Source: Nemertoderma westbladi
Taxonomy: Eukaryota; Animalia; Xenacoelomorpha
Assembly: GCA_032718475.1 (NCBI GenBank)
Contig: JAUCBJ010005698.1
Span: 2,952-66,951 of the forward strand
Direction of reading: 5' to 3'
Length of the DNA: 64,000 nt
The translations under genes and the position numbers were made by a program. Under the pieces are notes generated by a model that saw only the letters and a list, made by a program, of their open reading frames with translations, searched no databases and was not told the DNA's origin. The first letter of the stretch is position 1, and the number at the start of each line of letters is the position of its first letter. Shown here piece after piece: positions 3,192-63,387 of this stretch.

Positions 3192-3462
3192 TGCTATACT
3201 AAGTAATGGTATGAAAATAAATTCCGCAATAACACTAGAGATAAATACACTTAATATGAGATGGTCCTGATTATAGTATTATGCAACATTAGATACCGAT
3301 AAGTCAGTGTCAGTCAGTCAGTGAGTACTGAGTATAGGTATGTGAAACGATGGGTTCTGCGTCTTTACTGCATTATGCTTTTATGTTCTTTGGTCCTGCG
3401 AGTTAGGTCGTGGCGTGCGAAGGACAAACGACCTAATGAGAATGACCTAGGACTTAACACAA

Positions 3463-9699: not shown

Positions 9700-10107
9700 G
9701 ATTAAAACTCAAAAGCAGGTATTCCAAATATAAATAGCCGAATTTTTAGATTGCACACTGTATTTAGGCCTCCTAGAGATAAATAAACAGTAAACTGGTA
9801 AACACAATTATATCTATTGGTTGCCAATCTGACAGTACAGCAGTATGAGTAGAGTGTAGTGATTTAAGTCCGAAAATATTTGGTTTCAGGCCTACTCAGG
9901 TTCTACAAAGTACCGGTAAGAAGACTAGAGGCAAGTGGACAGTTACAGATGCAATTCTAATGTTTTGAAATTCAAATTGAGCAGCAAATTTCAACAGTAT
10001 GATCAGGAAGAAACAAAAAGGAAAGAAATCAAAACAATAAACGAGAGTTAGGAATATTGTAGCTGTAAGAAACGAAATGGGGTTAGCGACTCGAAATTTG
10101 TTTAAAG

Positions 10108-29471: not shown

Positions 29472-31105
29472 CTACCTAAACCTCCCCTGACCCCTAAGAT
29501 CCTTCAGTATCGGCCCTGCCCTCCTCCCCAACACCTTTCTCTCCTTCCTATGTTTGACCTCGTCATCTTTCAGTCTACGCTGCTTGGGTGACGGCTCAAC
29601 CGCCACAGTAAACTCACAGTCCCCCATCTGTTTACGCATTCTTGGCAACCGCTTCCCAGCAACCCTGTCGCCTAGAGCAACGCCAACCTCCTCCTTAGAA
29701 CTCCCACCAACGAACGAACTGAAATCTTCCCCGGGTTTCAACTCGTAAAATTTCGTTGTATTCTGACGTGACTCCGTAACAGTTTTCGTGTCGACAGATT
29801 TCCCGCGAGTTCTATTAGTTGCTTTAGAAACTCGATTTAAATTCTCGGTTAATTTACTGACATTCTCCCGCGGTTTCTTAGATTCCTCGGAACCATCATC
29901 GGACACCTCATAGAACTCGCTTTGTTTATCGGCCTCGGTGAATTTGAATTTCCCGCGGTCGCCCCGGGGATTGGCTCGCTTGTAATCCTCGCTGTCTGGG
30001 TCCACCTCAAGGTCCGGGTTGCTAAACAACGCCGCGAACCTGGCATCCGTAACCGGCGTCAACGACTCAACATCCTCCTTCACTCCCCCCATTTCTTCAT
30101 CTTTCTTCCCTTTCTTTTCCCTGACTAACTTCCGCTCCCGTAAATACCTCAACGCCATCAACTTGTTGACTCGCGGCAATTTCTTTAATTTAACTCGATT
30201 TTCTCTCACCTCCTCGATCTTCGCCTGTATTTTCTCCCGACGGTACCGCTGGTACGCGAATGGGTCGGCCAGCTGACTAGCCCGTTTGTACAGCCGAATA
30301 TCGATAAAGTAGCCGTGCATGTAGGGGTAGACGAGGTTGGTGCCAACGACGTGAGAGAGCCCGAGGGAGTTGAGTTCGCGAGGAGTTGTAAAGCGGTAGT
30401 CGTCGTACACGGAAACCTCGTCGGTCTCCTCTAATTCCTCGGTGAGGCTGTCCAGGAAGGAGCACCAAGAGGGAGCCGCTCCCAACTCGGGGAGGTAGTA
30501 GACCCCGGTCTCGGGGGCCTCGAGAGCGAGGAGGATCAGTCCGGATTCCGGGAACCGAGCGGCGGCGCGGACCTCGGCCGGAGGCTCGATCGCGGTGAAC
30601 GGCGCGCCAGAATCCGCGCGCCACAACTTTAGGACTTTTGCGTCGGCGGAGTAGACGAGTCCGGCCGCCGCCTCGTCGACGAACCCCAGCGAGTGGATCG
30701 GGAGGTCGTACTGGTGTTCCTTCCGGAGGAACGGCTTGTCGGAACGCAGATCGTAGAGGAGGACCGCCCCGGAACGCGTTCCCACCCCGAGTTCCACGGA
30801 GTTGCGGAACGCGAGGGCCGTGGTTCCGGATTCGGAAGGGAGACTTCCGACTCGACGCGGCGTCCGGCGCGGGTCCCACAGCTCGACAGTACCGGCACCC
30901 GCCGCCAGGAGGCCGTGGCGTGGGTTCAGGGCCAGACAATCGAACCCCCCCGCGGTCTCGCTGAGTAGCGAACGGAGGAATCGGCCCTGCTCCAGGTTAA
31001 TCCGGAATATTTCCGGCCCGTCGCCGGCCACGTAAAGGTCGCAGTTGCCATGGTGATACAACAGATCACGACCGAAACGCGGAACTCGTAGTTTATAGTA
31101 TTTAC
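29472..31105 (-). CDS. NOL10: Nucleolar protein 10 (NOL10/Enp2), exon 3 (last)
   Basis: GKYYKLRVPRFGRDL, NLEQGRFL, LGAAPSWCSFLDSLTEELEE, VYDDYRF, YMHGYFID, DARFAALFSNPD (NUC153). Acceptor TTCAG|GT at 31105, phase 1. Confidence 0.95.
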
Positions 31106-31319
31106 CTGAAGTAAAAAAAACAGTAAATTTATTTGCCATAAAAATATTTCATTATCGTGACAAACTTCGAAAACTACAAAATAAATTAATTAAAATTAAA
31201 AATATTTATATTTTCCCTTATAGCTGATGACAATTAATTAATTAATTAACAAACAATACAACAATAATGAAGAACAAAAACAAATGATAGTTAACAGTTT
31301 ATGTTACAGATGTTACAAG

Positions 31320-37899: not shown

Positions 37900-38251
37900 A
37901 CTAAGCAAAGTGTATTATTATTTGCTTTTGGTGTTATCAATTATTGACTATGGTTATTATATACTATGGTGGGGGTGTTGTGGCTGAATTAATTAATAAT
38001 TTTGCATTGTTATTATTAATCCGTTAAATACTGTATATTGTGGTAATTATTTAGTAGTAATTACACTGTGTTCTATCTCGTGAAAATAGGTACAATGGTC
38101 CTACAGTAAGTTATTAGTTTATTAATTATTTTCTCTCGTTAAAGTTGTACTAGTGTAATTACGTTTTATATTGGTTTTAGAGTAGCGTTATGTATTTAAT
38201 AAATTATACTCTCGAGTTAAATTGGGGTTAAATAAAAAGTGTTAGTGAGGC

Positions 38252-39490
38252 TGTTCGCGCTTTCAGACCTTTGGCAGTTTAACCCACCAAATTAAGATGT
38301 CTTCTAGATATTAAATCAGTTTTTAGTCTATGACACGTATTTGATTCACTACACTAGTCGAAACCAATCCGTGCGCGACCATTCACCCGCTGGATATTCC
38401 CGGGAGATTGGGTTCGACGGTTTAATTTTGTTGCTATGTAAGCCTAATGTATTATTCGACTGACAGTATTATATAATCTCTGACAATATTATTTACCTTC
38501 GGGAATATTAACAGTTCCTTTAGGACGTGGCACTTTATCTACATAAACAGAGTTATGACTTAAACTACTCACAACGATATGGCTTAATTATAATTCACAT
38601 ATATGGCGCATTCTTTAGGAATTGCTTCTTTAACAGACTCACTCATACACAATGCTGCACAATACTGCACACTAATCTGCCAATCTTCACTGATTTTAGT
38701 CACATATAAAAGGAACACAGACTGACTCATGTAGGGTCTATCAAATAACATTAGATTCACTTCAAACCACTTTAACATAAGTCACAATCGTTTATCTGTA
38801 ACCCTTCTCTCTTACCTTCGGTATATCAAGAATATTGGGTTTCGGGGTGATTTATCGTTATTCCAATATAATAATTCATCAACCATATTATGAAGAACTG
38901 ACAGTAAATAGCAGTATAAAACAACAACTGAACACTGATTGTTATGAGTTTGCAATGTTTCAGCAGTCAGGATGTATGATCAGTCAGCAGTTGATTCCAT
39001 GAGTCAGGTAGGTTAAAGGATATATGCCCTTTATAATTAAACCTACTAGTGTAAGACTAAAAACAGTAAAGCACAAAATACTTCCAAGCCGTTCTTTCTT
39101 TGGCTCAGGACTGAATGTAAACAATGCACATAGGCATTGCGTCATTTCTCGGAAATTTTCTGTACAAGGAGCCACAAAAACGCTCCAATTGGCTGACTGA
39201 ACTGAGAGACGCCGTAGAACAAAGGAAATCAACACGTATGAATGTCAGCTGTTAACCGTAGTCATAGTAACTACTGTTCAAGAGTAGCTATCACCCCTTT
39301 GCGTCACGAATTGCCATAGAATCATAAAATATGCCTTTCACAGTACACATACGGAGGAAATAGGTCTTAGATCCTCTAAAAACACCGATACAGCAATAAT
39401 ACGGTCTCTTACACTTATTAAATCAACTACAGAGTATTTTAATGTAAAAGATAATAAAAATAACGGGGCAATTCAGCAAAGGCTTTTACA
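38252..39490 (-). repeat. 3' LTR
   Basis: Same length as 49074-50312 and no differences seen by eye. Confidence 0.97.
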
Positions 39491-40129
39491 CCGCTCCCAG
39501 AAAATGGGATTTTCAGTCTATAAAATATAAAAATCACAGTTTCTAAAACATAAAGATACTCTAAACAGTTAGTCTTTCTTACGCAGACGGCGTTTACGCA
39601 GTTTTTTGAGGCTAGCAAGAGTCTTTTTCTCTTTGGGGGGAGCCACTTTACTAGGAGGGCCATAACTCCTGGGTGAAGGGTGCAATATGATTGCATCAGA
39701 AGGTGTAGGATTGTGGTCGAGGTATCTGCCGTTTCGATATGCTTCTCCTCGAGCTTATTTTCCTCCGCTCGTAGCTGGATACGTTCATCCAAAAACTCTC
39801 GCAGAGAATAGGATCGTCCAAGTTCGATAACTTCTCAGAGATTCTGGATTTCCCAATCGAATTGAGATAAGGCCAATTCGTGTATCGATTGGACTCACTG
39901 TTATAACTTACGTTTATCTGAACAAACGCAGGTTTCCTTTTTGATCTTTATAAAATAGCGTTTAACTCGTTTCGTACAACGCTCTCCTTCACCTTGATGA
40001 GGGGTTGTATCGCGTTAAACGTGGACGACCATACGGTTGGATAGTGATATTAGGTGTCCGCGTCACAATCCGGCTAGGTAAGATGGGCGGCTAGCTAGAA
40101 ATCACTGTCGGAGTGTTACCGATTAATTG

Positions 40130-41116
40130 TTAGGGTAGCACTAGATCTTTGAACAGTGAATACAGTCCGCGAGGATCCGCGACACCACCAAGATCGCAGG
40201 TCTGAGGTCCAACTAAGGAATGAGGAGGTTTGACCGAGCATTCCGAAACTCTGATCATTGGTTTATTTAAGGATCGTCTGAATCGAACGAGCGTAGGTGA
40301 TACATTGAACAAGTTTCGCTCGAAACTCCTGTAAGTATAGCGAATAAAACCGTGTTTAAAGCAACGTCTCCGTGGATGCTTATGTCTTTCCGTTTGTTGG
40401 TTGGGTCTTGGGCATTCATCGCAATAATACCCAAAAACGTACGTCTTGTAGGGGGAACGCGTGTGATCTTTCTCCAGCTTACAATATTCCTCCATCCGTT
40501 CGAAGCTATTCGGTACAACAGGTAGCGGTCGATCGGCGGTAAGATACATCATAGGGGAATCGGGCCGTTTGAGTTCTACCATGCAGTCATGATGTATACC
40601 TTGAGGATATCGAGTTTCTAGATTTTGTTGACTGGCAATATTGCGATATGTTTCTATCAGGAATTCCAGATAATCGTTGAAGTCGCTGCGTTTATCCGGC
40701 TCCTCAACGTCTTCTCTTTCGATTCGGTTTCGCATAGAATTCTCATGTTCGATTCTCGGTTTATTGTTCCGCCTCCGCTGGGTATGATATTTAAATAGAA
40801 CCATTTCCCCTTTGGTGTCTATATCGTCTATATCGTGTAAATCGATAGGATGACCAGTAGTTAAGAAGGCCATATACGTACCATTACGCTGCGTATATCG
40901 AGCAGCGAATTTTCTATAGTCCAACTCACGCGCGAGCTGCTCTTGGGACATTGGCGGTTCGATATAACGACCATCGTCCTCCGCAGCAGTTGGACTAACG
41001 TCGCCGCGTATTAAGCTATCAACAAACGCTTGCAAAAGTAGAGTATATCGCTCCCCGATACCAAGAACATCTTCTATCAACTCCGTCATGTCTGCTATAT
41101 ATGAGTTTATCCACAT
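40130..41116 (-). CDS. 328-aa orphan ORF in the env position of the BEL element; Cys/His cluster; function unknown
   Basis: Long open frame in the element's sense orientation; YYCDEC...HKH...CFKH; no evident signal peptide or TM segment. Confidence 0.65.
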   Translation of the reverse strand: MWINSYIADMTELIEDVLGIGERYTLLLQAFVDSLIRGDVSPTAAEDDGRYIEPPMSQEQLARELDYRKFAARYTQRNGTYMAFLTTGHPIDLHDIDDIDTKGEMVLFKYHTQRRRNNKPRIEHENSMRNRIEREDVEEPDKRSDFNDYLEFLIETYRNIASQQNLETRYPQGIHHDCMVELKRPDSPMMYLTADRPLPVVPNSFERMEEYCKLEKDHTRSPYKTYVFGYYCDECPRPNQQTERHKHPRRRCFKHGFIRYTYRSFERNLFNVSPTLVRFRRSLNKPMIRVSECSVKPPHSLVGPQTCDLGGVADPRGLYSLFKDLVLP

Positions 41117-42745
41117 TATAAGGAGTTTATATTCAGGCTAGCGAGCGTCGCTGCCTACTCCAATTAACCCCCGGACAGTACGAGATCCTCAGCGCCGATG
41201 TGTCGTCGCCGCTGTACTTTCGCCAACGACGTAGCCGCACAACGACAACGACAACCGACACAAGTCACTCGACTGTCCGTCCCAAAGACTTAGATGTACT
41301 TCAGGTTTTCCTTGGAGAGTTAGGTTACTTTTACGATTGCGACTAGCTACTGTAAACACACCTTAGCAGTAACATTCACCTATAAACTCACAAATACCAC
41401 ACACACAACTTGTCACAAATTACACACATTCGGGCCATTTGTCCGTTAGTCAATGCCTTCCAGAATGTCACTGTATTATTATGTATCCTTGGATACTAGT
41501 AGTGCGCTATTTATTCTCTATGCTATTCAATGGGACAGGCTTTCTATTGTTCTTTTAACTCAATTCTAATTCTAGCGTGGTTGTTGCTATGGTGACATTA
41601 TGCAAAGCTAGCGGTAGAATTAGGGTAGTTCCAATGCATACAGATCTGGGATGTTATTTAATAGTATTCTTTAATAGTCAATGTTCTGTTTTATACATGA
41701 CTTTATGAATTTTATCGGCTATTGACTATGTTTGGGAGACTTTCACACACTCGTACGCATGATAAGATAAATCTCCGCTCCCTTGATTTATTAATTAATG
41801 GAATTTTGGGAACTTTATAAATTGCGTAAAATGGCAATTTATTAAATTCATTAAAAGGCATGAATTTAACTTGATTCCCTGAAATTTTATTATTTGATAA
41901 TTAAATGGACATATTTGGATTCCAGAACATGTCTGGGGACACAAGATCCTTAATTCTATGACAATTGTCTTTTTAAGAATATCGGTAAATGCTACGATAT
42001 CTTAATTGACTAGAATTGTTGAAGGATCTGAATTTTACAGATTTTGACTTATTTGATTTGTAAATATTAACTAATTAATATTTGAGATGGGCACCGATTT
42101 ATTCCAGAACTTGTCTGGGGACGTTAACCACTGATTCTATAATTTGTCTTTCAAGTATATCGGTGGGTGCCACGATATCTTAATCGACTAGAATTACAGA
42201 TGGTCAAAGGGTTTAACAGATTTATTTTGCGTTATACGCTACTGTTAAAGGGACATCACGCTACTATATGTATTATTTAATATACGGTATGAGAGCAATA
42301 TCGCACGAAGCAATGTCAGTGTGAAGAGGCAAGTCGTTTCCAAGGTCTACCCAGAGCTTGGTTTAGCCGAGACACGAGGATCTGAACTTTGCATTCCTAA
42401 TACTCTGCCTACCAATAATACTTAAATATAGTAGTGGCTTTATTGTACTTTAATAAGTACGGACATTTCATCTTACTGTAGTTACGTATTTGTAATGTAA
42501 TACGGACAGTAAGGAAGAAGGAAAAGAATTATTTCTTGCCGTCGCATTAAATATAATATATACGTAATTAAGTAATAAACGCGAATATATATTGCACTAA
42601 TCTACTAAATAATCGCTAAAATAACATTCTACTGAATAAAATTAAAGAAAACGATTATAATAGAATTACATAGTAATACATACATAAATATAAAAATAAT
42701 AAAATAATATAAAATAATAGAGTCACACACCCACTCCATATGTTG

Positions 42746-45700
42746 TTACGTTATGGAGTCCCTAGATGTTTGAAGGATTAGGGAGGTGGTCGTGGGAAGA
42801 GAATCTTGCCTTCCACAGTTTCCGGAGAGTCCTCCATTCCCTTCCGATAAACACAAACGACCGACTGGGTGATTGAGTCGCTGCATCCTGAATACAATTC
42901 CAGGTTTCCTCTTCGTCCTGGAATAGTGACGATAGAAACATCGCTCAAAGTATATGACGGCGTCACAAAGCCGATTCCAGGAGCTATAGTGGTCCGTCGC
43001 TCTCTGCAGGAGAGGTGAGAGTCTCTGCGAGACGTCTGATGTTCCAGAGCTCCAATCGCTCTCTCTGATCTTCATGAAGGATCCACTCGCGGAAGGGAGG
43101 CCCAGATCCACGGCGTCGTCCCTGGCAACATGTAATACCGACAGATCTATCCCGGGTTCAAATAACTCCGATCCACCCGTCCGGGTTTCAGGTTCGACTT
43201 TCTCCGCTCCCTTGGCTGGTCTAATCTCAGTCGGAGTAAGATGGGGAGGCCATTCATTCTCCTTACTCAGGAAGTCGGGTTCACCTAACCGATCTATAGT
43301 ATCTGTTAGTTCTTGAGGAGTTGCTCCTCTGGAAGCGATGTCCGTTGGATTAAACTTCTTGGGGCAATATCTCCATTGATCTACATTGGAGCTAAGATTG
43401 TCATTATCTGAGGAGTGTGGTGTTCCCTCAGTTGGGTCGTCTCCCTCACTAGTATCGTCTTCCCATTCACTCACCTGGCAGACACGATCTTGAAGCAGTC
43501 TTTCCCTGAGCGTTCTACGGGAAGGTCCAGTAAGGTACCAACATACTCTAGTTCTTACCGCATAGGTCTGTAGGGGCTGCGGTTGAGCAGGCCGTTTCTC
43601 TAATGTCTCCAGCGCCTCATGCGCGTTTTGGCCGATGAGTATTTGCACTCCAGGGTAATCAGTCTGGAATCGAGGTATGTTAAGATGTTGGATGCTCTCA
43701 TCCTCGTCCCAATTATAAAGGTCTGCTTGAGTAGTAGCGAAGTTCTTTATAGCCACCATTTTCACTGACCTTATGCTATGTTCTCCTAGTTCGTCTTGTG
43801 GGGTGGACAACGCGCCTACATAATAATCAGCTGTTATTGTAGATTTCCAAACTTGCATAATGCCTGACATGTTGAGCTTAGTTTGGAACTTGGGTTGTCC
43901 AGCAAATATATCTTCGGCTAGCTCTTTATCGATGAATGTTCCTGTGCTGCCGGAGTCCAGGAGGGCGTTCACTACATAACTCCGTTTAGGTCCGTGCACC
44001 CTTACCTGCACCACAGGAAACTCTCGGATTCCTATATTGGAAGTTGGCGCTTTCCAAGATGGTTGTTGATCGGAAGTAGTTAAGGTAAGGTCGCTGTCTG
44101 TGTCTTTCTCATGTACGAGTGCTCGATACACTGCGGTGGTGTTTATTAGGTAACAGGATTCGTTTTGGTCGGAGAACTCGTCCGTATAGAATCCTTCCAT
44201 CTCAGATTGATCAGTGTCGTTCACATCACTGAATTGGACATGTAGTTCGGACTCACTTACCTGACTCGGGCTGTTTCGTTCGAATTCCGTGTGCAACAAG
44301 ATATGATGTTTTGCGCCGCACTTTGCACACCTTGCGTCGGAGTTACAGGTTCGCCGTTGGTGTCCTCGTCTGAGGCAATTATAACACAACCGCTTATCCC
44401 ACATGACTTCACGTCTATCCTCGAGTGATTTCCTCAGGAATTTATCACACGCATTTAAACGGTGGGGCCCGTCGCACAGCACACATTTCGGCTTGATGTT
44501 ACTTACTTTAACCTGTGCTATGTGGTGCACACTTGTTCTTTCCTCGGGCTTTCTCACCTGAATTCCTTTAGGAGACGTAGGAGGGGTTTTTTGTATCGGT
44601 TCCCTTCTGTCATTGGGTCGAGACTTGGATTTACTTACCTGTTCTTTAGGCATTTTATTGACATAATAAGGTCTGTCAGTGTCTTTCCCGCTGTCCTCTC
44701 CTTGAGAGGTTTGGCTTTCACCGTCGTCGGTATAACATACTGGTGTTACCCTTCTCCTAGAAACGGGTTTCTCACTTACCTTGTTTTCCAATGTCTTCTC
44801 TCTGGACTGCCTTAGGAGCTGTAATTTCACTTCTCTATCTAAGAATGACATGAGATCAGTCATGGTAGGGTCTCGTCGTTGTTGTTCCATCATATATAAC
44901 ACTTTCTTATCCCAGTGTGTACCTACTCCACCCTTCGGTAAAGCAGAAGCCACTGCTCTAATAACCATAGCACTCTGATACTCATGAGACTTACCTAGCC
45001 AATCTAATTGTCTGCAGATCTCCTGAATTTCATCGGAAAACTCTATAATCCCGCTGCTAATAAACTTTCGGGGCGCTACCAACTTTGCATACAAATACCC
45101 AGCTATGTTATTCCTATTACCATACCTGATGTTTAGTGTATCCCAAACTTGTCTTAATCCGTCTGGATGTCCAATAAACCTTAACGCCATTAACTTGGGA
45201 GATCCTTCCAAGCACTCGATGAGGTATCTAAGTTTTTCTCCATTAGATAGTACAGAGTTCTGTATGTTATCTTTGTAATATTCATTAAAAGGTAACCATT
45301 TCATCTCATCTCCATTGAACTTGACGATCTCTCCAACCTTTACCGCTTGCCGGGCTTCGGTTCTAGCCATTTGACGCGTAAAACTTTCTTGGGCCATCGT
45401 GCTATTTAATATCGAGTTATCGGTATATAAATTTCTAGGATTATGGTCAGTTCTATATGGAATATCATTATCAACAGGTCTATAATTACCCTTAATAGGG
45501 TTCACTATAGGAGTTTCTACTTCGCTAGTAGTATAAATGCGTGTAGGCTCCACACCTTGCGCATGAGATACTTCAGACCTAACGGGTTGACACATTGTTA
45601 CAGAGGGTGGTGGTATACCCTTTTGGGTGTTTACTAATTTATCGCGTTCAAGCGCGATACTTTGCTGCACTTCTTGCAACTCTAGCCTACTTTCCCTTAC

Positions 45701-46888
45701 TGTGCCCTTGAACTGCTGGACAGTCTCCTGCATCTGTCCGAGCAGGATATCCATCCCCCGCCGTCTCTCGTCCACCCATTCGACCGCCGAAGCGGGAGTC
45801 GCCAACGTTGTAGCGGGCGGACGAGGGACAACGGGAGACAAATCTGGAATATTTCGCTCGGGGTCCAGGACCTGAACTGTCTCTTGGGCAGTTCCACGGG
45901 GCACAGGTAGCTTAGTGCTATGCAGAGGGAATTTAGAAGTAGTTTCAGGGAGCACAGGTGTATCTATCACCGAAGGGGTGATTTCAAGAACAGGCCTAAT
46001 TATTTCAGGCTCATCTACTATAGTAGGGAGTCTTTCTATTTTAATTATTTGGTCTGTGGGCTCTGTACTACCTAAGTTGGTGTTATTTAGTTGCCTTCTA
46101 ACAGCTGGAGGCAAATCAGGCAATTTCTGACGGTGGAATGTTCTTTTACGTCTACTTAGACGAGATCTATTTCCTTTGCCTTCAGTATCGGTGGTATCGC
46201 CTTCCTCCGATGATGTATATCCCTGTCTTTTGGGAGTAGATCGATCCATCATCCGCATATTGCTAGCCGTTAACTGTTTATTTATGCAGTCTTGATTCTC
46301 CTGAATGTTTTCCAATTCTAACTGGGTGGTTTCTTCAGTCGCTCTCCGTTCTGCTTCTGCCACTGCCTCTGCCGCCTTTCTTTCAGCTGCTGCTTCTGCC
46401 AAGGTCGCCTTTGCTTCTGCCGCTGCCTCTGCCGCCCTTGCCTCTGCCGCTGCCTCTGCCGCCCTTGCCTCTGCCGCTGCCTCTGCCGCCTTTGCCTCTG
46501 CCGCTGCCGCTTTTGCCCCTGCTGCTGCCTCTGCCGCTGCCACTTTTCTTTCTGCTTCTGCAGCTACCACTGCTGCTTTCTTTCTGTCTTCTATGCGTTT
46601 TTTCTTTACTTGTTCTTCCCTTTCTCTAGCGATGCGGAGTTGTTCATCGAATTTAGCTTGGTTCGCCGCTAACCTATCCACATCAATCGCATCTAACACA
46701 AGTTTGGCTCCTTCACTATTAGGGCTAAGCCCATCTAGTCTTCTCCGCAACTCTTCATCACCTACGAAACGCTGATAGTCTGACAGATAGATGTCAATGG
46801 CATCCCTCTTATGCGGTTTCTCTGCTGTCACTTCGCTCTCGGTTGTATCTAGTAGACTGTCTGACAGATTCTGCTTTGCGTCAGACAT
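42746..46888 (-). CDS. BEL/Pao Gag-protease polyprotein with in-frame deletions of RT, most of RNase H and the integrase core
   Basis: FNGDEMKWLPF...KLRYL...LEG (BEL Gag); CVLCDGPHRLNAC / CYNCLRRGHQRRTC / CAKCGAKHHILLH; ALLDSGS protease; then directly QWRYCPKKFNPTDIASRG and YSSWNRL; ends near HPVGRLCL. Confidence 0.92.
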   Translation of the reverse strand: MSDAKQNLSDSLLDTTESEVTAEKPHKRDAIDIYLSDYQRFVGDEELRRRLDGLSPNSEGAKLVLDAIDVDRLAANQAKFDEQLRIAREREEQVKKKRIEDRKKAAVVAAEAERKVAAAEAAAGAKAAAAEAKAAEAAAEARAAEAAAEARAAEAAAEAKATLAEAAAERKAAEAVAEAERRATEETTQLELENIQENQDCINKQLTASNMRMMDRSTPKRQGYTSSEEGDTTDTEGKGNRSRLSRRKRTFHRQKLPDLPPAVRRQLNNTNLGSTEPTDQIIKIERLPTIVDEPEIIRPVLEITPSVIDTPVLPETTSKFPLHSTKLPVPRGTAQETVQVLDPERNIPDLSPVVPRPPATTLATPASAVEWVDERRRGMDILLGQMQETVQQFKGTVRESRLELQEVQQSIALERDKLVNTQKGIPPPSVTMCQPVRSEVSHAQGVEPTRIYTTSEVETPIVNPIKGNYRPVDNDIPYRTDHNPRNLYTDNSILNSTMAQESFTRQMARTEARQAVKVGEIVKFNGDEMKWLPFNEYYKDNIQNSVLSNGEKLRYLIECLEGSPKLMALRFIGHPDGLRQVWDTLNIRYGNRNNIAGYLYAKLVAPRKFISSGIIEFSDEIQEICRQLDWLGKSHEYQSAMVIRAVASALPKGGVGTHWDKKVLYMMEQQRRDPTMTDLMSFLDREVKLQLLRQSREKTLENKVSEKPVSRRRVTPVCYTDDGESQTSQGEDSGKDTDRPYYVNKMPKEQVSKSKSRPNDRREPIQKTPPTSPKGIQVRKPEERTSVHHIAQVKVSNIKPKCVLCDGPHRLNACDKFLRKSLEDRREVMWDKRLCYNCLRRGHQRRTCNSDARCAKCGAKHHILLHTEFERNSPSQVSESELHVQFSDVNDTDQSEMEGFYTDEFSDQNESCYLINTTAVYRALVHEKDTDSDLTLTTSDQQPSWKAPTSNIGIREFPVVQVRVHGPKRSYVVNALLDSGSTGTFIDKELAEDIFAGQPKFQTKLNMSGIMQVWKSTITADYYVGALSTPQDELGEHSIRSVKMVAIKNFATTQADLYNWDEDESIQHLNIPRFQTDYPGVQILIGQNAHEALETLEKRPAQPQPLQTYAVRTRVCWYLTGPSRRTLRERLLQDRVCQVSEWEDDTSEGDDPTEGTPHSSDNDNLSSNVDQWRYCPKKFNPTDIASRGATPQELTDTIDRLGEPDFLSKENEWPPHLTPTEIRPAKGAEKVEPETRTGGSELFEPGIDLSVLHVARDDAVDLGLPSASGSFMKIRESDWSSGTSDVSQRLSPLLQRATDHYSSWNRLCDAVIYFERCFYRHYSRTKRKPGIVFRMQRLNHPVGRLCLSEGNGGLSGNCGRQDSLPTTTSLILQTSRDSIT

Positions 46889-49061
46889 GCTTATGTATAC
46901 CGTTGAATGTCTACTGCTGTATTACAGTCTGAGTAAGTCTAGTAACTCAGTATTAACTGCTAGCCTAGTAATTAATTACCGGTACTGCTACTCAGTGTAG
47001 TAGGATATATATATAATATATTAGAATACCGGTATACTTATAGTATATATAACTATATAAGTATTATTACAGACTAGGTTTATCACAGAATACCGGTATA
47101 ATTTTAGCACAAATATATATAAATATATAATAGGCCTATCGGAATACCGGTATACAGCTTACAGTTTGTAGGATATATAATTCTGAAATAGAATTAATTA
47201 CAAGTACCGGTATAATTTCAGCCTAGATTTATAGAAATAAAGATAATAGGCCTATCGTAAATACCGGTATATCAATTATTTCAAATAATTGAATTTCTGT
47301 TACTTTAGGGTTACTTGGTTACTTTACTTACTTTATTACCGTTATTTGAGCAGTAATCCAACTTATATTGAGACCTAATGGTTGTATGGTAGGCCTACGA
47401 TTTATAAATCGTTAGATTTGATTTATAATATATATATACCCGTTTTAATGGGTTTTGTCAATGTTTGAAATAAATGTTATTATTTCTGGGGAGTAATCAC
47501 TACACAAAGCGGTGCGCTTTCAGTGAAGTGTTACGTACAGGACACTAAAACAAATAATACTAATTTACCTAAGTTACTTAATACTACAAATTACGTACAA
47601 TTCGGCTGAGATTACAATCTCTAAATAAATGCAAAAATTTACAAAAAACACAAAATACGAATTTTTAGGGTAATTTTACAAGAAGTCTACAAACCAGCCT
47701 AACAAAGGGTTAGAATACCGGTCATTACAACGGACAGGGTACTACGGTATTTGAAATAATAAGTAGTAGTAAATACACTGCGTTGTCTAGATAGGAAAAT
47801 ACCACCGCCTGACGACCTATAGCCGTATCGCTATAGGTTCTACGTTATGTATCACGGAGTGTTCCTACCTAGAAGTTAATAGAGCTAATCGAATGTGCCT
47901 ATCAACCACTTTACAACACAAATATAATGTCTACAATAATTACTTCGGAAAGTACTGTACACTAAACCCTAAATTAGGTACGAGTACTTATATAACAGAT
48001 AATCAGTAGTTAAATATACTTGAACAGCTAAAAGAACCACGGCATCTGCTGGAGTGACCGATGCACAAAATCACCAGTCTTTACCTACGCCGAGCAGCCC
48101 GTGTAGTACCGGGGTTAATTTAACTATAACGGTATGTATAACAAACACAATTACTGTAGGAACAAACTTGGGGAATGAATGTTGCGGATAATCGCATAAA
48201 CTCCGAATAATAAATATTACGCTACGCGTACAAACTACTCAAACAAAATACAGACCGAACACTGACAGACTACTATCAAGCCTAAACAAACTACGGTATA
48301 TGCAGACTCCGAAATGATTAGGGAGTATGCGCTCTAACCCAGTAGTGCGACTTATTCTTTAGTTGGGGGATTACCTTACAGCGTTCGCTGCCCCTACTGC
48401 CTAATCATACTTAATCGGACAGATGATCTACACACGTGGCAATCCGTTCAGACCTAATAACAGCCAGACAACTATCCAGCCTACAAATTATCTAAATAAA
48501 ATTATACGCTACCCGTACAGACTTACACAAACAAAGTACAGACTAAACGATGGCAGACCACTCTCAAGCCTAAATAAACCACAGGACATGCAGACTCCGA
48601 AATGATTAGGGAGTATGCGCTCTAACCCAGTAGTGCGACTTATTCTTTAGTTGGGGGATTACCTTACAGCGTTCGCTGCCCCTACTGCCTAATCGTACTT
48701 AATCGGACAAGTGCTCTACACACACTGTAATCCGTTCAGACTTAACAGCAATCAGACAACAGCTCAGCCTACAAATTGTCTGTACAATCTGATCAGGCTT
48801 ACACGCCTTCTGTTCAATACTGGCCTACAAATAAATAAAACTTGACAGAAATAAGTAAACCATATAAAGGTATAAGGGGTGATCAATCCCTAATCCCCTA
48901 AACAGCCTACCGGTATACAACAATCAAATCGAATAATACTAGTGTACTTATACGGAAGTACCGGTTAGAACAGTTAGGCCTACTGACCTACAGAATGTAC
49001 CGGTTCAGGTTTACCGGTTGACCGGTACTTTCAACTTTATTGCTTACTGCAACAAAGAAGC

Positions 49062-49073
49062 TATATCCTTTAA
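49062..49073 (-). promoter_or_regulatory. Primer-binding-site position, non-tRNA type (sense TTAAAGGATATA), complementary to LTR site 49835-49846
   Basis: Abuts the 5' LTR; no TGG; 12/12 reverse-complement match inside the LTR. Confidence 0.65.
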
Positions 49074-50312
49074 TGTTCGCGCTTTCAGACCTTTGGCAGT
49101 TTAACCCACCAAATTAAGATGTCTTCTAGATATTAAATCAGTTTTTAGTCTATGACACGTATTTGATTCACTACACTAGTCGAAACCAATCCGTGCGCGA
49201 CCATTCACCCGCTGGATATTCCCGGGAGATTGGGTTCGACGGTTTAATTTTGTTGCTATGTAAGCCTAATGTATTATTCGACTGACAGTATTATATAATC
49301 TCTGACAATATTATTTACCTTCGGGAATATTAACAGTTCCTTTAGGACGTGGCACTTTATCTACATAAACAGAGTTATGACTTAAACTACTCACAACGAT
49401 ATGGCTTAATTATAATTCACATATATGGCGCATTCTTTAGGAATTGCTTCTTTAACAGACTCACTCATACACAATGCTGCACAATACTGCACACTAATCT
49501 GCCAATCTTCACTGATTTTAGTCACATATAAAAGGAACACAGACTGACTCATGTAGGGTCTATCAAATAACATTAGATTCACTTCAAACCACTTTAACAT
49601 AAGTCACAATCGTTTATCTGTAACCCTTCTCTCTTACCTTCGGTATATCAAGAATATTGGGTTTCGGGGTGATTTATCGTTATTCCAATATAATAATTCA
49701 TCAACCATATTATGAAGAACTGACAGTAAATAGCAGTATAAAACAACAACTGAACACTGATTGTTATGAGTTTGCAATGTTTCAGCAGTCAGGATGTATG
49801 ATCAGTCAGCAGTTGATTCCATGAGTCAGGTAGGTTAAAGGATATATGCCCTTTATAATTAAACCTACTAGTGTAAGACTAAAAACAGTAAAGCACAAAA
49901 TACTTCCAAGCCGTTCTTTCTTTGGCTCAGGACTGAATGTAAACAATGCACATAGGCATTGCGTCATTTCTCGGAAATTTTCTGTACAAGGAGCCACAAA
50001 AACGCTCCAATTGGCTGACTGAACTGAGAGACGCCGTAGAACAAAGGAAATCAACACGTATGAATGTCAGCTGTTAACCGTAGTCATAGTAACTACTGTT
50101 CAAGAGTAGCTATCACCCCTTTGCGTCACGAATTGCCATAGAATCATAAAATATGCCTTTCACAGTACACATACGGAGGAAATAGGTCTTAGATCCTCTA
50201 AAAACACCGATACAGCAATAATACGGTCTCTTACACTTATTAAATCAACTACAGAGTATTTTAATGTAAAAGATAATAAAAATAACGGGGCAATTCAGCA
50301 AAGGCTTTTACA
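49074..50312 (-). repeat. 5' LTR
   Basis: Direct repeat of 38252-39490. Confidence 0.97.
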
Positions 50313-50716
50313 GAGGCTGTGCCCAACCAAATACAAATATTCTTGACAAACAGTAGTCAGTCAGCTCAGCAAGTAGATGTCACAAAATGATAGCTCTGCT
50401 TTAGACTTTATGTTATCATATTTATAATACCAGTAGGAATGAATATGATACACCTATGAAAAAAATTGTATTGTATTCCATTGTATTTGATTCTGTTTAA
50501 ATTTGTTTGAATTTATAAGAAAATTTATTTTGATGTTTTTTTTGGAAATTTACATTAATTATTGTACATTTTTGATGTAAAAATTGTACAATTCGTTGAA
50601 ATGAAAATCCGGTCAAAAATTGAAATCCGGCCAGAGCAGGAGTCGGAGCCGGAACCTGATTTTTTTCTCAAAATCCGACCTCAATTCGGCCTGGCCAGAT
50701 ATCCGACACACCCCTA
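50313..50716. mobile_element. Right half of a hAT MITE (family of 10108-11064), split by the BEL insertion
   Basis: GTTAGTGAGGC|TGTGCCCAACCAAATACAAA matches ~10626-10660; ends GATATCCGACACACCCCTA. Confidence 0.85.
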
Positions 50717-52794: not shown

Positions 52795-53192
52795 GTAAGG
52801 ACTCACTTAGAGTCAACCAATCACACGTAAGGGCGCGCTCACTTAGAGTCAACCAATCACACATATGGACGCGCTCACTTTGGGTCAAACAATCACACGT
52901 AAGCACTCACTTCGAGTCAACCAATCACACGTAAGGGCGCGCTCACTTTGGGTCAACCAATCACACGTAAGGATGCAGTCACTTAGAGTCAACCAATCAC
53001 ACGTAAGGGCGCGCTCACTTTGGGTCAAACAATCACACGTAAGGACTCACTTAGAGTCAACCAATCACACATAAGGACGCGCTCACTTTGGATCAAACAA
53101 TCACACGTAAGGACGCGCTCACTTAGAGTCAACCAATCACACGTAAGGATTCACTTAGAGTCAACCAATCACACGTAAGGGCACGCTCACTT
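52795..53192. repeat. 36/32-bp CCAAT-containing satellite, left block
   Basis: CACTTAGAGTCAACCAATCACACGTAAGGGCGCGCT units. Confidence 0.95.
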
Positions 53193-56202: not shown

Positions 56203-59200
56203 GAGTCAACCAATCACACGTAAGGATGCAGTCACTAAGAGTCAACCAATCACACATAAGGACGCGCTCACTTTGGGTCAAACAATCACACGTAAGGATT
56301 CACTTAAGAGTCAACCAATCACACGTAAGGGCGTAAGGGCGCGCTCACTTAGAGTCAACCAATCACACGTAAGGATGCAGTCACTTAGAGTCAACCAATC
56401 ACACATTAGGACGCGCTCACTTAGAGTCAACCAATCACACGTAAGGGCGCGCTCACTTTGGGTCAAACAATCACACGTAAGGACTCACTTAGAGTCAACC
56501 AATCACACGTAAGGGCGCGCTCACTTAGAGTCAACCAATCACACGTAAGGGCGCGCTCACTTAGAGTCAACCAATCACACGTAAGGGCGTAAGGGCGCGC
56601 TCACTTAGAGTCAACCAATCACACGTAAGGATGCAGTCACTTAGAGTCAACCAATCACACATAAGAACGCGTTCACTTTGGGTCAAACAATCACACGTAA
56701 GGGCGCGCTCACTTAGAGTCAACCAATCACACGTAAGGGCGCGCTCACTTTGGGTCAAACAATCACACGTAAGGACTCACTTAGAGTCAACCAATCACAC
56801 GTAAGGGCGCGCTCACTTAGAGTCAACCAATCACACGTAAGGGCGCGCTCACTTTGGGTCAAACAATCACACGTAAGGACTCACTTAGAGTCAACCAATC
56901 ACACGTAAGGGCGCGCTCACTTAGAGTCAACCAATCACACGTAAGGGCACGCTCACTTAGAGTCAACCAATCACACGTAAGGACTCACTTAGAATCAACC
57001 AATCACACGTAAGGGCGCGCCCACTTAGAGTCAACCAATCACACGTAAGGGCACGCTCACTTAGAGTCAACCAATCACACGTAAGGGCGCGCTCACTTTG
57101 GGTCAAACAATCACACGTAAGGACTCACTTAGAGTCAACCAATCACACGTAAGGGCGCGCTCACTTAGAGTCAACCAATCACACGTAAGGGCGCGCTCAC
57201 TTTGGGTCAAACAATCACACGTAAGGACTCACTTAGAGTCAACCAATCACACGTAAGGGCGGGCTCACTTAGAGTCAACCAATCACACGTAAGGGCGCGC
57301 TCACTTAGAGTCAACCAATCACACATATGGACGCGCTCACTTTGGGTCAAACAATCACACGTAAGGACTCACTTAGAGTCAACCAATCACACGTAAGGGC
57401 GCGCTCACTTAGAGTCAACCAATCACACGTAAGGATGCAGTCACTTAGAGTCAACCAATCACACATAAGGACGCGCTCACTTTGGGTCAAACAATCACAC
57501 GTAAGGACTCACTTAGAGTCAACCAATCACACGTAAGGGCGCGCTCACTTAGAGTCAACCAATCACACGTAAGGGCGCGCTCACTTAGAGTCAACCAATC
57601 ACACGTTAGGATGCAGTCACTTAGAGTCAACCAATCACACATAAGGACGCGCTCACTTTGGGTCAAACAATCACACGTAAGGATTCACTTAGAGTCAACC
57701 AATCACACGTAAGGGCGCGCTCACTTTGGGTTAAACAATCACACGTAAGGACTCACTTAGAGTCAACCAATCACACGTAAGGGCGCGCTCACTTAGAGTC
57801 AACCAATCACACGTAAGGATGCAGTCACTTAGAGTCAACCAATCACACGTAAGGGCGCGCTCACTTTGGGTCAAACAATCACACGTAAGGACTCACTTAG
57901 AGTCAACCAATCACACGTAAGGGCGCGCTCACTTAGAGTCAACCAATCACACGTAAGGATGCAGTCACTTAGAGTCAACCAATCACACATAAGGACGCGC
58001 TCACTTTGGGTCAAACAATCACACGTAAGGGCGCGCTCACTTAGAGTCAACCAATCACACGTAAGGGCGCGCTCACTTAGAGTCAACCAATCACACGTAA
58101 GGGCGCGCTCACTTAGAGTCAACCAATCACACGCAAGGGCTCGCTCACTTAGAGTCAACCAATCACACGCAAGGGCTCGCTCACTTAGAGTCAACCAATC
58201 ACACGCAAGGGCTCGCTCACTTAGAGTCAACCAATCACACGCAAGGGCTCGCTCACTTAGAGTCAACCAATCACACGCAAGGGCTCGCTCACTTAGAGTC
58301 AACCAATCACCCGTAAGGATGCAGTCACTTAGAGTCAACCAACCACACATAAGGACGCGCTCACTTTGGGTCAAACAATCACACGTACGGACTCACTTAG
58401 AGTCAACCAATCACACGTAAGGGCGCGCTCACTTAGAGTCAACCAATCACACGTAAGGGCGCGCTCACTTAGAGTCAACCAATCACACGTAAGGACTCAC
58501 TTAGAGTCAACCAATCACACGTAAGGACTCACTTAGAGTCAACCAATCACACGTAAGGACTCACTTAGAGTCAACCAATCACACGTAAGGACTCACTTAG
58601 AGTCAACCAATCACACGTAAGGGCGCGCTCACTTTGGGTCAAACAATCACACGTAAGGACTCACTTAGAGTCAACCAATCACACGTAAGGGCGCGCTCAC
58701 TTAGAGTCAACCAATCACACGTAAGGATGCAGTCACTTAGAGTCAACCAATCACACATAAGGACGCGCTCACTTTGGGTCAAACAATCACACGTAAGGGC
58801 GCGCTCACTTAGAGTCAACCAATCACACGTAAGGGCGCGCTCACTTAGAGTCAACCAACCACACGTAAGGGCGTGCTCACTTAGAGTCAACCAATCACAC
58901 GCAAGGGCTCGCTCACTTAGAGTCAACCAATCACACGCAAGGGCTCGCTCACTTAGAGTCAACCAATCACACGCAAGGGCTCGCTCACTTAGAGTCAACC
59001 AATCACACGCAAGGGCTCGCTCACTTAGAGTCAACCAATCACACGCAAGGGCTCGCTCACTTAGAGTCAACCAATCACACGTAAGGACTCACTTAGAGTC
59101 AACCAATCACACGTAAGGACTCACTTAGAGTCAACCAATCACACGTAAGGGCGCGCTCACTTTGGGTCAAACAATCACACGTAAGGACTCACTTAGAGTC

Positions 59201-59250
59201 AACCAATCACACGTAAGGGCGCGCTCACTTAGAGTCAACCAATCACACAT
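56203..59250. repeat. 36/32-bp CCAAT-containing satellite, right block (~85 copies)
   Basis: Same units as 52795-53192, with higher-order variant blocks. Confidence 0.97.
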
Positions 59251-60083
59251 AAAGGACTCGGTCACTAAGTCTGTAGTGGTGGTCAAATTAAATATTCAAA
59301 TACATTTATGAAGTAAGTATCTTTTCAGATCAATTAATTTATTAATGGTTATTTTTTCCTTTCGATCTATTATTGAAACATGCAATTACAAGAAAGGTCA
59401 AAGGTCACCAAATGCGACTAAATGACACTTTGTAAAAACTCACCCATAATTACTGCAAGTAATAATGGCCACGAAACAAAAGGTAGAAAAACTAATAACG
59501 GGGAACATTTAATTAATTAATTAACACTTAGATTTAATTAAAGACGATTACTATGAAATTCCAATTAATGAAAAAGTTTAATAATTATTTGCTGTAACTT
59601 TATGACATAATCGTAACGAAGTTGGTTTACATCAGCCCTGACCCTGAAGGTGCAAAATTGTTTACGTTCTAAATTTTGAGAATTAAGTTAATCGGTAAAC
59701 AAGAATAAATAAATCAATTTAGTATATCAAATTCATATTTACGAGCAAAATCCAAAGAAAAATAAATATAATCGTCAAAATAACATCGGCCAATAAAAAC
59801 ATAAACATTGTAGCGAACTAAATCAATAAGCTAAGTTGTTAGTTAAAAGTGAAAGTAATTAAAGTAAATCCTTGATTATATTTAATTAATAAATAGCACC
59901 AATAAACAAAATATATTTTAATTTAAAGTAAACATGTAAAACAAGCAACTAATCACTATAAATATTATATTCGAACAACTAAATCAACAAAGTGAATTCA
60001 TTAACATAAGTATATTAAAGCACAGCTTTATTAGCGAAAATTAATTAACTTGATGGCGCCCGGTGGTTTCTAGAACGTTTTTA

Positions 60084-62315
60084 TCACCTTTTTTTGGATT
60101 TTATTCTTGAGTTTTTACCCTTAAATTCTTCTATAAGTTCCTGCTGTGCCGCCAGTTTTTCGTTCATCGCCACCAGATGCTCGCTCATCATACTGAGCTG
60201 CTGCTCGTAACTGCCGCGAGTCCCGTTGAGTTCGTCCCGAAGGGCGACGCACTCGGCGTTCAGCGAACCGCACTCGCGCTCGGCCTCGACGCGTTTCCGC
60301 TCGTCCAACGCCAGTCTGCGGTGCAGCGTGCGGCACTCGGTGTGCAGATGGACGCAACGCGACTCGGAGCTCTGAACGCGGACCGCCAACTCCTCGAGAC
60401 GCCGAGAGTGGTGGGCGACTAGCAGAGCTTCCCGCGGGGCGACGTCATCCTCGAGGAACACTTCGCCGGAGGGTCGGGAAGGAGTCATCGAACCCAAGGA
60501 AGAGTAGTCGGTGATTAGGTTGGAGTTCCTCCGGTGTTCCGGTCCGACTTCCGGGCCGTCGCGCCCCTTAGCGGTGAGTCTCTGCAGCAGTTGGGCCTCG
60601 ACCATCCAGTGTTGTTTCTGCTGCTCCAGCAGTCGTTGTCGTTCGTTTCCGCGCTCCGTCATGTCGGTTAGCTCCGCGCAACGGATACGGAGTTTCTCGA
60701 GACTCTCGCGGTTGGAGACGGCCTCGAGGTGGGGGATCGAATTGGAGTCGTTGGTGGTGGCGTGGAGGATAAACCGACGGGTCTGGGAGAGGAGTGAGGG
60801 GAGTAGGGAGGGGGGGAGGGAGGAGGAGGGGAGGGATGAGTTTCCAACGCAAGAATCTTCCAGGAACCCTCGAGTTCGAACCGGAAGCGACCCGGAACGG
60901 AGGAGCTCGGAGGAGTTCAGCTGTACCAACTCGGAGAGGCGGCTCAGCGACTCCGCGAGGGCCGACAGCGCGGAGAACAAACAACGGTTGGTGGAGGAGA
61001 GTTGGGAGGAGGTGGTCGGCAACTCCTCCTCCAACTCGAGTTTATTCCTGAAACTCCGAGACAATCCGGCGGATGATACGGACAAACTCCGCAGGAAGTC
61101 GGGGAATTCGTCGGAGATGCGGGACGAACGGAGAGAGGCAAGCGCGGCGGTGAGCAGATTTGCGATGTCGTGGAACAGTTGGTTTAGCGCCGATGAGTGG
61201 AGAGAGTTGGCGTCGACGACGGCCGAGGTGCAGACCGACTGGGAGGATTCCTCGAAGACGGCGCCGACTAGCAGCGGCTCGAGGCGGTCGAGGTAAGCGA
61301 GGAATTCCTCGAGAAGATGAGACAAACTGGAGAAATTACCCTCGGGCTGTAAGAGGTACTCGTTTATTAGCTGGTCTATCGGACGGATGTATGTGGCGTT
61401 GCTGAGGAGAGCGCTGCTGAGGGCGGTTACCCCGGGGGAGGGAGTGGGGAAGAGCAGAGGGATCCGTTGCTGTGTGTAAGTCAACCAGTTACTAACGGCG
61501 GAGAGAACCTCGATGGCTCGTGTCGCGGAGACCGAGAGAACCTCCTGGAACCTGTCGCGCCTTCCCACCGGGTTCGGGACGTTCAGCTGGTTGAACCCGA
61601 CGTGTCTCGTGTCGTCAAAGTAGATTTTACTCACGATTAACTTATTTGCGGCGTCGAGTTTCTCCTCCATCGAGTTGTTGGCGTTCTTCACTTGGTTCTC
61701 CCAGATATTGGCCCGCTTCTGGGCGTCTCCGAGCTCCCGTAACGCCCCCGTGTACCGCCCGCTGAGATGTGCAACTTCCGCTTCTAGTCGCGTCCGCCCC
61801 TCCTTATTACTCGCCTCCGCGCCTCGGGACTCCTCTTCTAACTCCTCCACTCGTCTCTGTAACACCTCGACTTGCGACCGTAACGCAACCACCTCGTGGT
61901 TGTGACTGATTCCGATTCCACTCAACTCTTTGTGAAGGTTTTCGTTCTCCTCGATTTTGTTCCTAAGTTCCTCATCGAACACCCGAGGATCCGGATTAGC
62001 ATTAACACTAACATTCTTCTGTTTCTTGGATTTATTAATTGCGACTATTTCTTGCTGTAGCAGTTCCACCCGTCGCGATACCTGCTGGTTCCGGAACTGA
62101 AGGGCCTCGATCTCCTGATCCTGTCGTCTCGATTGCAACTCCTTCTCCCGGTTTAGTGCGGTTAGTTCGGTCTCCTTCCGTTGTCCCTCCAAGACGGCGG
62201 ATTTCAGAACGTTTTGTTGGGCGCGAAGTTTCGCGTACTCCTGAGCCAACAGCTGGTACTTGGAGTGTTGGTCGAGTTTAGAGTCAGTACTTCCAGAGGA
62301 TGCGCTGTCAGCCAT
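60084..62315 (-). CDS. PPP1R21: Protein phosphatase 1 regulatory subunit 21 (KLRAQ1/CCDC128), intronless, 743 aa
   Basis: KYQLLAQEYAKLRAQQNVLKSAVLE; LQFRNQQ..RRVELLQ; C-terminal DEL..TRGSYEQQLSMMSEHLVAMNEKLAAQQE. First ATG at 62315. Confidence 0.93.
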   Translation of the reverse strand: MADSASSGSTDSKLDQHSKYQLLAQEYAKLRAQQNVLKSAVLEGQRKETELTALNREKELQSRRQDQEIEALQFRNQQVSRRVELLQQEIVAINKSKKQKNVSVNANPDPRVFDEELRNKIEENENLHKELSGIGISHNHEVVALRSQVEVLQRRVEELEEESRGAEASNKEGRTRLEAEVAHLSGRYTGALRELGDAQKRANIWENQVKNANNSMEEKLDAANKLIVSKIYFDDTRHVGFNQLNVPNPVGRRDRFQEVLSVSATRAIEVLSAVSNWLTYTQQRIPLLFPTPSPGVTALSSALLSNATYIRPIDQLINEYLLQPEGNFSSLSHLLEEFLAYLDRLEPLLVGAVFEESSQSVCTSAVVDANSLHSSALNQLFHDIANLLTAALASLRSSRISDEFPDFLRSLSVSSAGLSRSFRNKLELEEELPTTSSQLSSTNRCLFSALSALAESLSRLSELVQLNSSELLRSGSLPVRTRGFLEDSCVGNSSLPSSSLPPSLLPSLLSQTRRFILHATTNDSNSIPHLEAVSNRESLEKLRIRCAELTDMTERGNERQRLLEQQKQHWMVEAQLLQRLTAKGRDGPEVGPEHRRNSNLITDYSSLGSMTPSRPSGEVFLEDDVAPREALLVAHHSRRLEELAVRVQSSESRCVHLHTECRTLHRRLALDERKRVEAERECGSLNAECVALRDELNGTRGSYEQQLSMMSEHLVAMNEKLAAQQELIEEFKGKNSRIKSKKR

Positions 62316-63387
62316 GCCACATCCAAAAGCCAGAAAGCCCAGTTCTGTAGGTTCTGAGGTTATCACGTTATTTCATGTTCTGCAACTTTTCTTCTTTTAG
62401 AGTTTTAGTTTACTTTATTAACAAAATCTGATTGTTGACTGTAATCAGCTACGATAATACTCAAATACGGTACCGGCAATAATGATGTACCTGTAATACT
62501 TACTTGCTTGGTTGCAATGTGTAAAATGGTTATCTAAAATCGAGACAATATCAAGATCTCAGTTGCAGAGTCCTTTTTTGAAATATCTTTATGAGACGCA
62601 AACAATGGTGGTGGTAGGTACAAATGACCAAAATATTTCATACCATTTTAAGGTCGGTGTCCTTTAAGAGCCGTCTCAAGAAAGTCAAAATAATTCAGCA
62701 AGATGTTAAGAAAACGTATGATTGACAGAGTTGTCCTTCATGTAACTTCCCCCTGTACCTTCCCATGTACCTTCCCTTCCCCACCCCCCCCCCCATCCCC
62801 CCTCCACAACCCATTGTCTGAATGCTTATCAAGGAAGTACTGCAATGCATATGAAACCTTTAAAGTTATATTGAAGTTGGCTGGAATCTCTGTCTCAGCT
62901 GTTAGGCCTGCCCAAGTCCTGTGCCCTTGAACAGCCGGCGAAGGAGTGTTATTGGTTGACCACCATGTCGGCTAAACCAGAAGGTTATCATAGTGTAAGT
63001 CTGTGAACAAGCTCTTCCTCCTAACCACAGCAATCACCAACTAAGGGATATTTAAAGCGCTACAAATGTATATCCCGCTAAAAATAATCACTTGTCCACT
63101 AAATGTTTCCTCCACTATTTATAATTCCATCTATCTAAAATCGGCCTGCTGCCTTGCAGCTGCACATTGAGATGCTATGGTGGTTGAACAAAAGTATTTT
63201 TTCCACCACCATGCAATCCACAATTGGCATGCTCCAATGCAACATGTAGCTTATCCCCCACAACTGCCTATCTATCCCATGACTTTCACGAGAAGAGCGA
63301 AAATCCTTAAAGATGAGTCTCAAGAAAGTAATGGTGTCCCAATATGTCTACAATATACACGGTGGATAGAAAATAAGCTTATTTTCT

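Follow-up and report, generated by a model that had tools for sequence, protein, structure and literature searches.

Self-primers have been reported in the Tf1/sushi group of LTR retrotransposons and predicted for Tcn1 and for the Copia lineage TAR, according to passages in PMC6317226 and PMC4600332. Portions of three papers describe Tf1 and Tf2 of Schizosaccharomyces pombe, Tj1, the Tf1/sushi group and Tcn1 as having a primer-binding site (PBS) right after the 5′ LTR that is complementary to the element's own LTR over about 11 nt, with no tRNA involved (PMC7175516, PMC4600332, PMC5341516). In Tf1, the PBS is paired with bases 1–11 of the transcript, and RNase H cleaves between bases 11 and 12 (sections of PMC7175516), and in Tf2 a downstream start makes an RNA that cannot be reverse-transcribed (sections of PMC5341516). 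For the plant Ty1/copia TAR lineage (Houba, Osr-1), self-priming was predicted from a complement of at least 10 bp starting 0–5 bp after the 5′ LTR, and the available portion of that paper describes no intron-split primer there (PMC6317226). According to the ICTV profile of the Belpaoviridae, the PBS is 18 nt long and complementary to tRNA-Arg or tRNA-Gly, and a host tRNA serves as primer (PMC8742986).

The sequence-only reading that preceded this analysis knew of no description of self-priming in BEL/Pao elements. Our literature search, which covered openly accessible papers, likewise found none, and a prior mention in print is possible. The BEL/Pao surveys PMC3118150, PMC554778 and PMC6238403 contain none of the searched words for primer or PBS, and portions of PMC6934838, PMC3601003, PMC5443660 and PMC3286476 hold nothing on BEL/Pao self-priming. 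The element described below probably primes its reverse transcription with a 12-base piece of its own RNA and not with a tRNA, and self-priming is likely in BEL/Pao, judging from the sequences of relatives.

The element and its primer-binding site

The window, that is, the whole 64,000-nucleotide stretch of DNA analysed, contains a minus-strand LTR retrotransposon spanning 38252-50312, with an identical pair of 1239-bp LTRs that have TG...CA ends. Its features are as follows.

49074-50312, minus strand: 5′ LTR, 1239 bp, TG...CA; the same as the 3′ LTR across all 1239 bp
38252-39490, minus strand: 3′ LTR, 1239 bp; second copy of the primer site at 39024-39013
50313-50317, plus strand: 5-bp target-site duplication GAGGC; other copy at 38247-38251
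39491-39498, minus strand: polypurine-tract-like GGGAGCGG, abutting the 3′ LTR
48218-48781, unstranded: two tandem copies of 288 bp, within the 2.1-kb 5′ untranslated region
42746-46921, minus strand: ORF1, 1391 aa from stop to stop; BEL/Pao gag (DUF1759), zinc-knuckle region, DSGS protease and a short remnant of the RNase H end
40130-41137, minus strand: ORF2, 335 aa, between gag-protease and the 3′ LTR; without a recognisable relative
49062-49073, minus strand: PBS, sense TTAAAGGATATA, starting right after the terminal CA of the 5′ LTR; no TGG
49835-49846, minus strand: candidate self-primer TATATCCTTTAA, 12 nt that exactly complement the PBS; distance to the LTR end, 761 nt
49848-49856, minus strand: upstream arm adding nine predicted pairs after a 1-nt bulge; overlaps TATAAA (49857-49852)
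49829-49839, minus strand: R arm of a proposed, doubtful R-U5 duplex; shares 5 nt with the primer
49092-49113, minus strand: predicted U5 hairpin with eight pairs and a 6-nt loop (P 0.91-0.95; z = -1.8 alone), containing the U5 arm of the R-U5 duplex
49243-49248, minus strand: ATTAAA, putative poly(A) signal, the sole hexamer of that kind between the primer and the LTR end

The gag domain of ORF1 is DUF1759 (E 2e-11), and the protease and zinc-knuckle matches are weak. All 12 homologues found for ORF1 are BEL/Pao-type polyproteins or fragments, with DUF1759, PF05380 or DUF5641 recorded in 11 of them. Compared with full-length relatives, the protease of ORF1 runs straight into the last RNase H residues, residues 812 to 1372 of P0006 being absent between 43520 and 43396. 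RT and most of RNase H are absent from the element, and no integrase match was found in it; ORF2 gave no Pfam match, no hit among 1.84 billion representatives, and atlas leads that were all under 0.8. With these parts missing, the element is an internally deleted, non-autonomous BEL/Pao derivative, and RT, RNase H and integrase would have to come in trans. The earlier assignment to BEL/Pao holds by the type of gag and protease; the non-autonomous state had been missed.

As to its classification, the element has TG...CA LTRs, a target-site duplication, a polypurine tract and gag and protease of BEL/Pao type; its pol is internally deleted, so that the order of RT, RNase H and integrase cannot be read from it and placement by RT phylogeny is impossible. 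Membership in the Tf1/sushi group (Ty3/gypsy chromoviruses) is ruled out by the BEL/Pao type of its proteins. With the Belpaoviridae it shares a DUF1759 gag, a protease, a 1.2 kb LTR, TG...CA ends and an animal host, and its best relatives carry the Pao RT-RNase H (PF05380) and DUF5641; it differs from the family description in lacking a tRNA-type PBS and in the deletion of RT and integrase (PMC8742986). In a gag-protease tree it forms a long branch, with identities no higher than 25%, and falls inside no well-supported group. The LTRs are identical and the GAGGC duplication is intact, and the insertion is therefore recent; the complementarity between PBS and LTR has been retained in it.

The TGG that would follow the LTR in an 18-nt PBS matching a tRNA 3′ end, as in the Belpaoviridae, is missing. 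Instead, TATATCCTTTAA is the sole exact complement of the PBS anywhere in the 1239-bp LTR, and dinucleotide-shuffled LTRs reached 12 nt from the first base in only 4 of 20,000 cases, or in 2 of 5,000 when the start was free to slide by 0–5 bases. A 12-nt match at offset 0 lies within the pattern of Tf1-type and TAR elements (at least 10 nt of own-LTR complement, 0–5 nt past the LTR), as given in part of PMC6317226. The GC extension beyond the 1-nt bulge continues through G-U pairs, so that the predicted duplex of primer and PBS has 21 pairs (-20.3 kcal/mol) and takes in most of the TATAAA, which offers a second reading of this word as part of a pairing arm. No tRNA gene was found within the window, where Rfam gave three matches, each far below threshold. 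All coordinates of the sequence-only reading for the PBS without TGG and its exact complement were confirmed, as were the GC extension and the TATAAA about 11 nt upstream of the site, which begins at 49857.

No GT-AG junction in the LTR of the window's element gives a match of at least 9 nt to the PBS, and its primer is therefore not splice-built but of an intron-less form. Donor-like words occur on the minus strand at 49637, 49464, 49394 and 49318, between the primer and the LTR end; splicing at them could shorten the 761-nt loop.

Self-matching primer sites and predicted LTR introns in BEL/Pao relatives

Relatives were collected with an alignment of nine BEL/Pao polyproteins, by scanning part of the metagenome contigs; of the 424 stretches confirmed there, the 80 best were taken. 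These correspond to 78 loci and 61 families, 29 of which were scored. Of the others, 24 lack the element's 5′ portion, and in eight a gag start is present but neither an LTR end nor a primer could be assigned (L006, L016/L043, L025, L035, L039, L047, L059 and L072); L016 has the acceptor half only, and L047 is possibly a genuine miss. The same kind of alignment gave 43 pattern matches in viral contigs, none of them confirmed, and exact LTR-end/PBS patterns had no match in viral and metagenome contigs. The gag repeat of L038 and other non-LTR repeats were set aside.

A PBS complementary to the element's own LTR was found in 28 of the 29 scored families, over 10–16 nt in 27 of them and over 9 nt in L038. 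The exception, L052, serves as a negative control: its PBS is of TGG type, presumably resembling tRNA-Tyr, and its self match is just 6 nt (L052:1-175 and 5830-6301). In the cleanest set, where the LTR end is fixed by divergence of the two copies, all eight families (L009, through L008, L012, L015, L017, L019, L021, L050 and L057) match their own LTR over 10–13 nt, and shuffled LTRs equalled these matches in 0–6 of 300 cases per family. L070, whose LTR end is based on where a contig stops, and the remaining 19 families, with LTR ends selected visually or as the best match, carry less weight. When strict splice donors are demanded, L057 drops to 7 nt and L070 to 8.

The matches are specific to each family. 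When the PBS of one family was compared with the LTR of another under strict donors, 5 of 792 pairs reached at least 10 nt, leaving out 20 pairs among five families with one common primer; under loose donors, it was 34 of 420, with 20 of these from the same five families. Among 26 rows there are 22 different 9-nt primer ends, in elements whose RTs are 40–81% identical. On this comparison, PBS and LTR site covary across families, which is the check that the sequence-only reading had proposed for its idea of tRNA-independent priming by LTR-derived RNA, and that idea is now well supported by comparison. The relatives support the window's element by analogy and not as close kin, because its gag-protease is a distant long branch.

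In 20 of the 28 self-matching families, the match exists only after a predicted GT-AG intron inside the LTR is removed.

LTRs, predicted GT-AG introns, intron-split primer families (20 in all): L001, L002, L007, L009, L012, L015, L017, L018, L019, L026
LTRs, GT-AG introns, the rest of the 20: L029, L032, L042, L045, L050, L057, L058, L065, L070, L077

The predicted introns are 67–466 nt long (19 measured). Their donors begin GTAAG or GTGAG in 17 of the 20 families, in a junction scan that demanded merely GT and YAG and resolved ties toward the better donor. In 15 spliced families, the unspliced LTR yields 6–10 nt, compared with 10–15 nt after splicing. The earlier proposal was right about an LTR-derived primer but had missed that most relatives would need splicing to form it. 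In an RT tree of 28 rows, intron-less families are interspersed with intron-bearing ones, with at least four changes among 25 labelled rows: L021 groups with L002 (100/99), L024 with L026 (100/98), and a five-member group (99/94) and L013 are also intron-less. Repeated intron loss is the simpler reading of a tree whose root has no safe outgroup.

Pairing in the relatives begins 0–6 nt past the LTR, and the primer end lies 62–243 nt before the LTR end, which makes the window's primer, at 761 nt, an outlier. In 6 of 20 relatives, a TATA-like word precedes the primer by 31–167 nt, and thus the primer is probably often internal to the leader. Primers of relatives mostly end in AC, facing a PBS that starts with GT.

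Leader folding, transcription start and the source of the primer

The sequence-only reading had also proposed a Tf1-like R-U5 duplex beside the primer. The 11-bp complement behind it (49839-49829 with 49110-49100, one G-U) exists beyond chance, as 10 of 3,000 shuffles equal it; however, its pairs overlap the primer and had probability 0.0 in all nine leader folds, in which the U5 hairpin wins. Such a duplex stands out in only 1 of 27 relatives, so that it was rejected as a general feature, and the relatives differ in this from the Tf1 group. The family variants bear on both structures. A common variant at 49108, which makes up 62–100% of depth in four runs, turns a U-G pair of the hairpin into C-G, and in the R-U5 duplex it breaks an A-U pair. 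A contig of X5 speaks for the duplex, having a matching change at 49831, along with further changes at 49830 and 49829, in contigs that are unphased. The loop of the U5 hairpin (49100-49105) is complementary to 49834-49839, that is, to the last five primer bases and the next base; a capture or staging contact is possible.

Variation in the family of the window's element was followed in contigs from four runs aligned to 48790-50400 (13,302 contigs in X1). Summed depth in X1 is about 567,000 over 49834-49869 and about 18,000 over 49816-49833, and in X3 about 240,000 and 13,000 over the same intervals; these are rough, interpolated values, contig depth being a poor measure and contigs being unable to show RNA ends. 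For a divergent 609-base contig of X5, 21 of the differences listed fall in 49757-49833 and none fall within 49834-49884, with 26 of its 27 differences listed; family differences here are those among the rows listed. The primer thus seems to close a conserved block, with divergence beginning directly after it.

Pairing of primer and PBS is predicted with a probability of 0.69–1.0 for RNAs that start between 49862 and 49846, a range that fits the start proposed earlier (49846-49849). In folds begun at 49870 or farther upstream, the helix is lost (P 0.0). TCAKTY, an Inr-like motif, occurs seven times in the LTR, three of them upstream of the primer, and is uninformative. Upstream of the primer there is a single TATA-like word, at a distance of 11 nt, and the usual distance from a TATA box to the start is 25–31 nt; if the TATAAA were a normal TATA box, the RNA would begin just past the primer, near 49832-49826. 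By analogy with the downstream start of Tf2, both starts could exist.

A different source of the primer would be the 3′ LTR copy of the packaged RNA or a separate short LTR transcript, with TATAAA at 49857 as a real TATA box and the RNA starting just past the primer site. The spacing of the TATAAA speaks for it, the family diverges directly past 49834, and the many variant copies (13,302 contigs in X1) could supply RNA in trans. On the other hand, the TATAAA is also accounted for by the pairing arm, the primer is predicted to be unpaired with the PBS when U3 lies upstream of it, and the intron, which 20 of 28 families retain, would tend to be lost if a spliced 3′ copy served as primer. We regard this source as unlikely, and that the primer derives from the LTR by either route, in cis or from such a copy, as highly probable. 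A local hairpin at 49830-49869 is predicted to hide the primer if U3 is upstream, as in the 3′ LTR copy, but it is not beyond chance, since 12–13 of 200 shuffles do as well, and across eight intron-less relatives such a hairpin is inconsistent; we treat it as a lead only.

The helix of LTR and PBS might instead be real and conserved for structural reasons (packaging, dimerisation, translation control or shielding of the PBS), with priming left to a host RNA, for instance a tRNA fragment. Half-tRNA primers are known in Copia lineages, according to part of PMC6317226, and the ICTV gives tRNA priming for the family (PMC8742986). This accords poorly with the 22 distinct primer ends, for each of which the LTR of the same element holds the match, with pairing that starts 0–6 nt past the LTR, where the 3′ end of a primer must lie, and with the lack of such a helix in the TGG-type family, and we consider it likewise unlikely. 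It is very improbable that the match in the window's element is a chance or relic feature, with mobilisation by other means: its non-autonomous state, its distance from the families surveyed and the AT-rich site speak for this, but just 4 of 20,000 shuffles equal the match, the identical LTRs and target duplication indicate recent integration, and the site lies inside the conserved block of the family.

Proposed priming and its implications

Priming from the element's own RNA in cis, the reading that we favour, would proceed as follows. Transcription would begin at or upstream of 49846, and the leader would fold so that 49846-49835 pairs with 49062-49073, beside the U5 hairpin. RT and RNase H supplied in trans by an autonomous partner would act on this leader, RNase H cutting where the paired stretch ends on its 3′ side to give a 3′-OH, as in Tf1; the window's element differs from the Tf1 group in having no RNase H of its own. 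Strong-stop DNA would stop at the cut; after strand transfer, the 3′ LTR of the RNA would serve as template for the primer region. In relatives with an intron, the primer would arise when the 5′ LTR copy is spliced, the 3′ copy retaining its intron. Since everything upstream of the cut would be copied from the 3′ LTR, both the persistence and the loss of introns can be explained, and copying of a spliced 3′ LTR would yield intron-less elements like that in the window.

A broader reading, to which we give somewhat better than even chances, is that self-priming is normal in a large branch of BEL/Pao and that its basic form is splice-built, with the halves of the primer joined by the host spliceosome in the 5′ LTR and the intron left in the 3′ LTR of that RNA, such that only spliced RNA is licensed for reverse transcription and the 3′ copy is kept from priming. 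Intron-less forms would then have arisen repeatedly, and non-autonomous elements would hijack the RNase H of a partner. If true, self-priming is used by all three LTR superfamilies: the Tf1/sushi and Tcn1 chromoviruses belong to Ty3/gypsy and TAR to the Copia elements of plants, and the window's element belongs to a different superfamily, BEL/Pao. The ICTV description would then cover just part of BEL/Pao, and annotation based on the PBS would overlook self-priming members. A splice-built primer would couple retrotransposition to host splicing, a link for which our literature search found no precedent, and predicts one LTR copy spliced and the other unspliced on the same RNA.

Around the element, the window contains host genes as long uninterrupted frames at 1983-3278, 7543-9708, 29472-31148 and 60084-62372; they include a PWWP protein, an hnRNP Q/R with an N-terminal SAP domain, part of NOL10, and PPP1R21. 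Exact look-up gave no match for any of five proteins from the window. The hnRNP Q is about 50% identical to the versions of many animals and close to none, and the frames suggest that the host is an intron-poor, fast-evolving animal. Large tandem arrays lie at 14941-16495, 23484-28527, 52802-53192 and 56203-59252, with units that include 36 bp repeated 43 times and 54 bp repeated 94 times; a 36-bp unit is common to 52802-53192 and 56203-59252.
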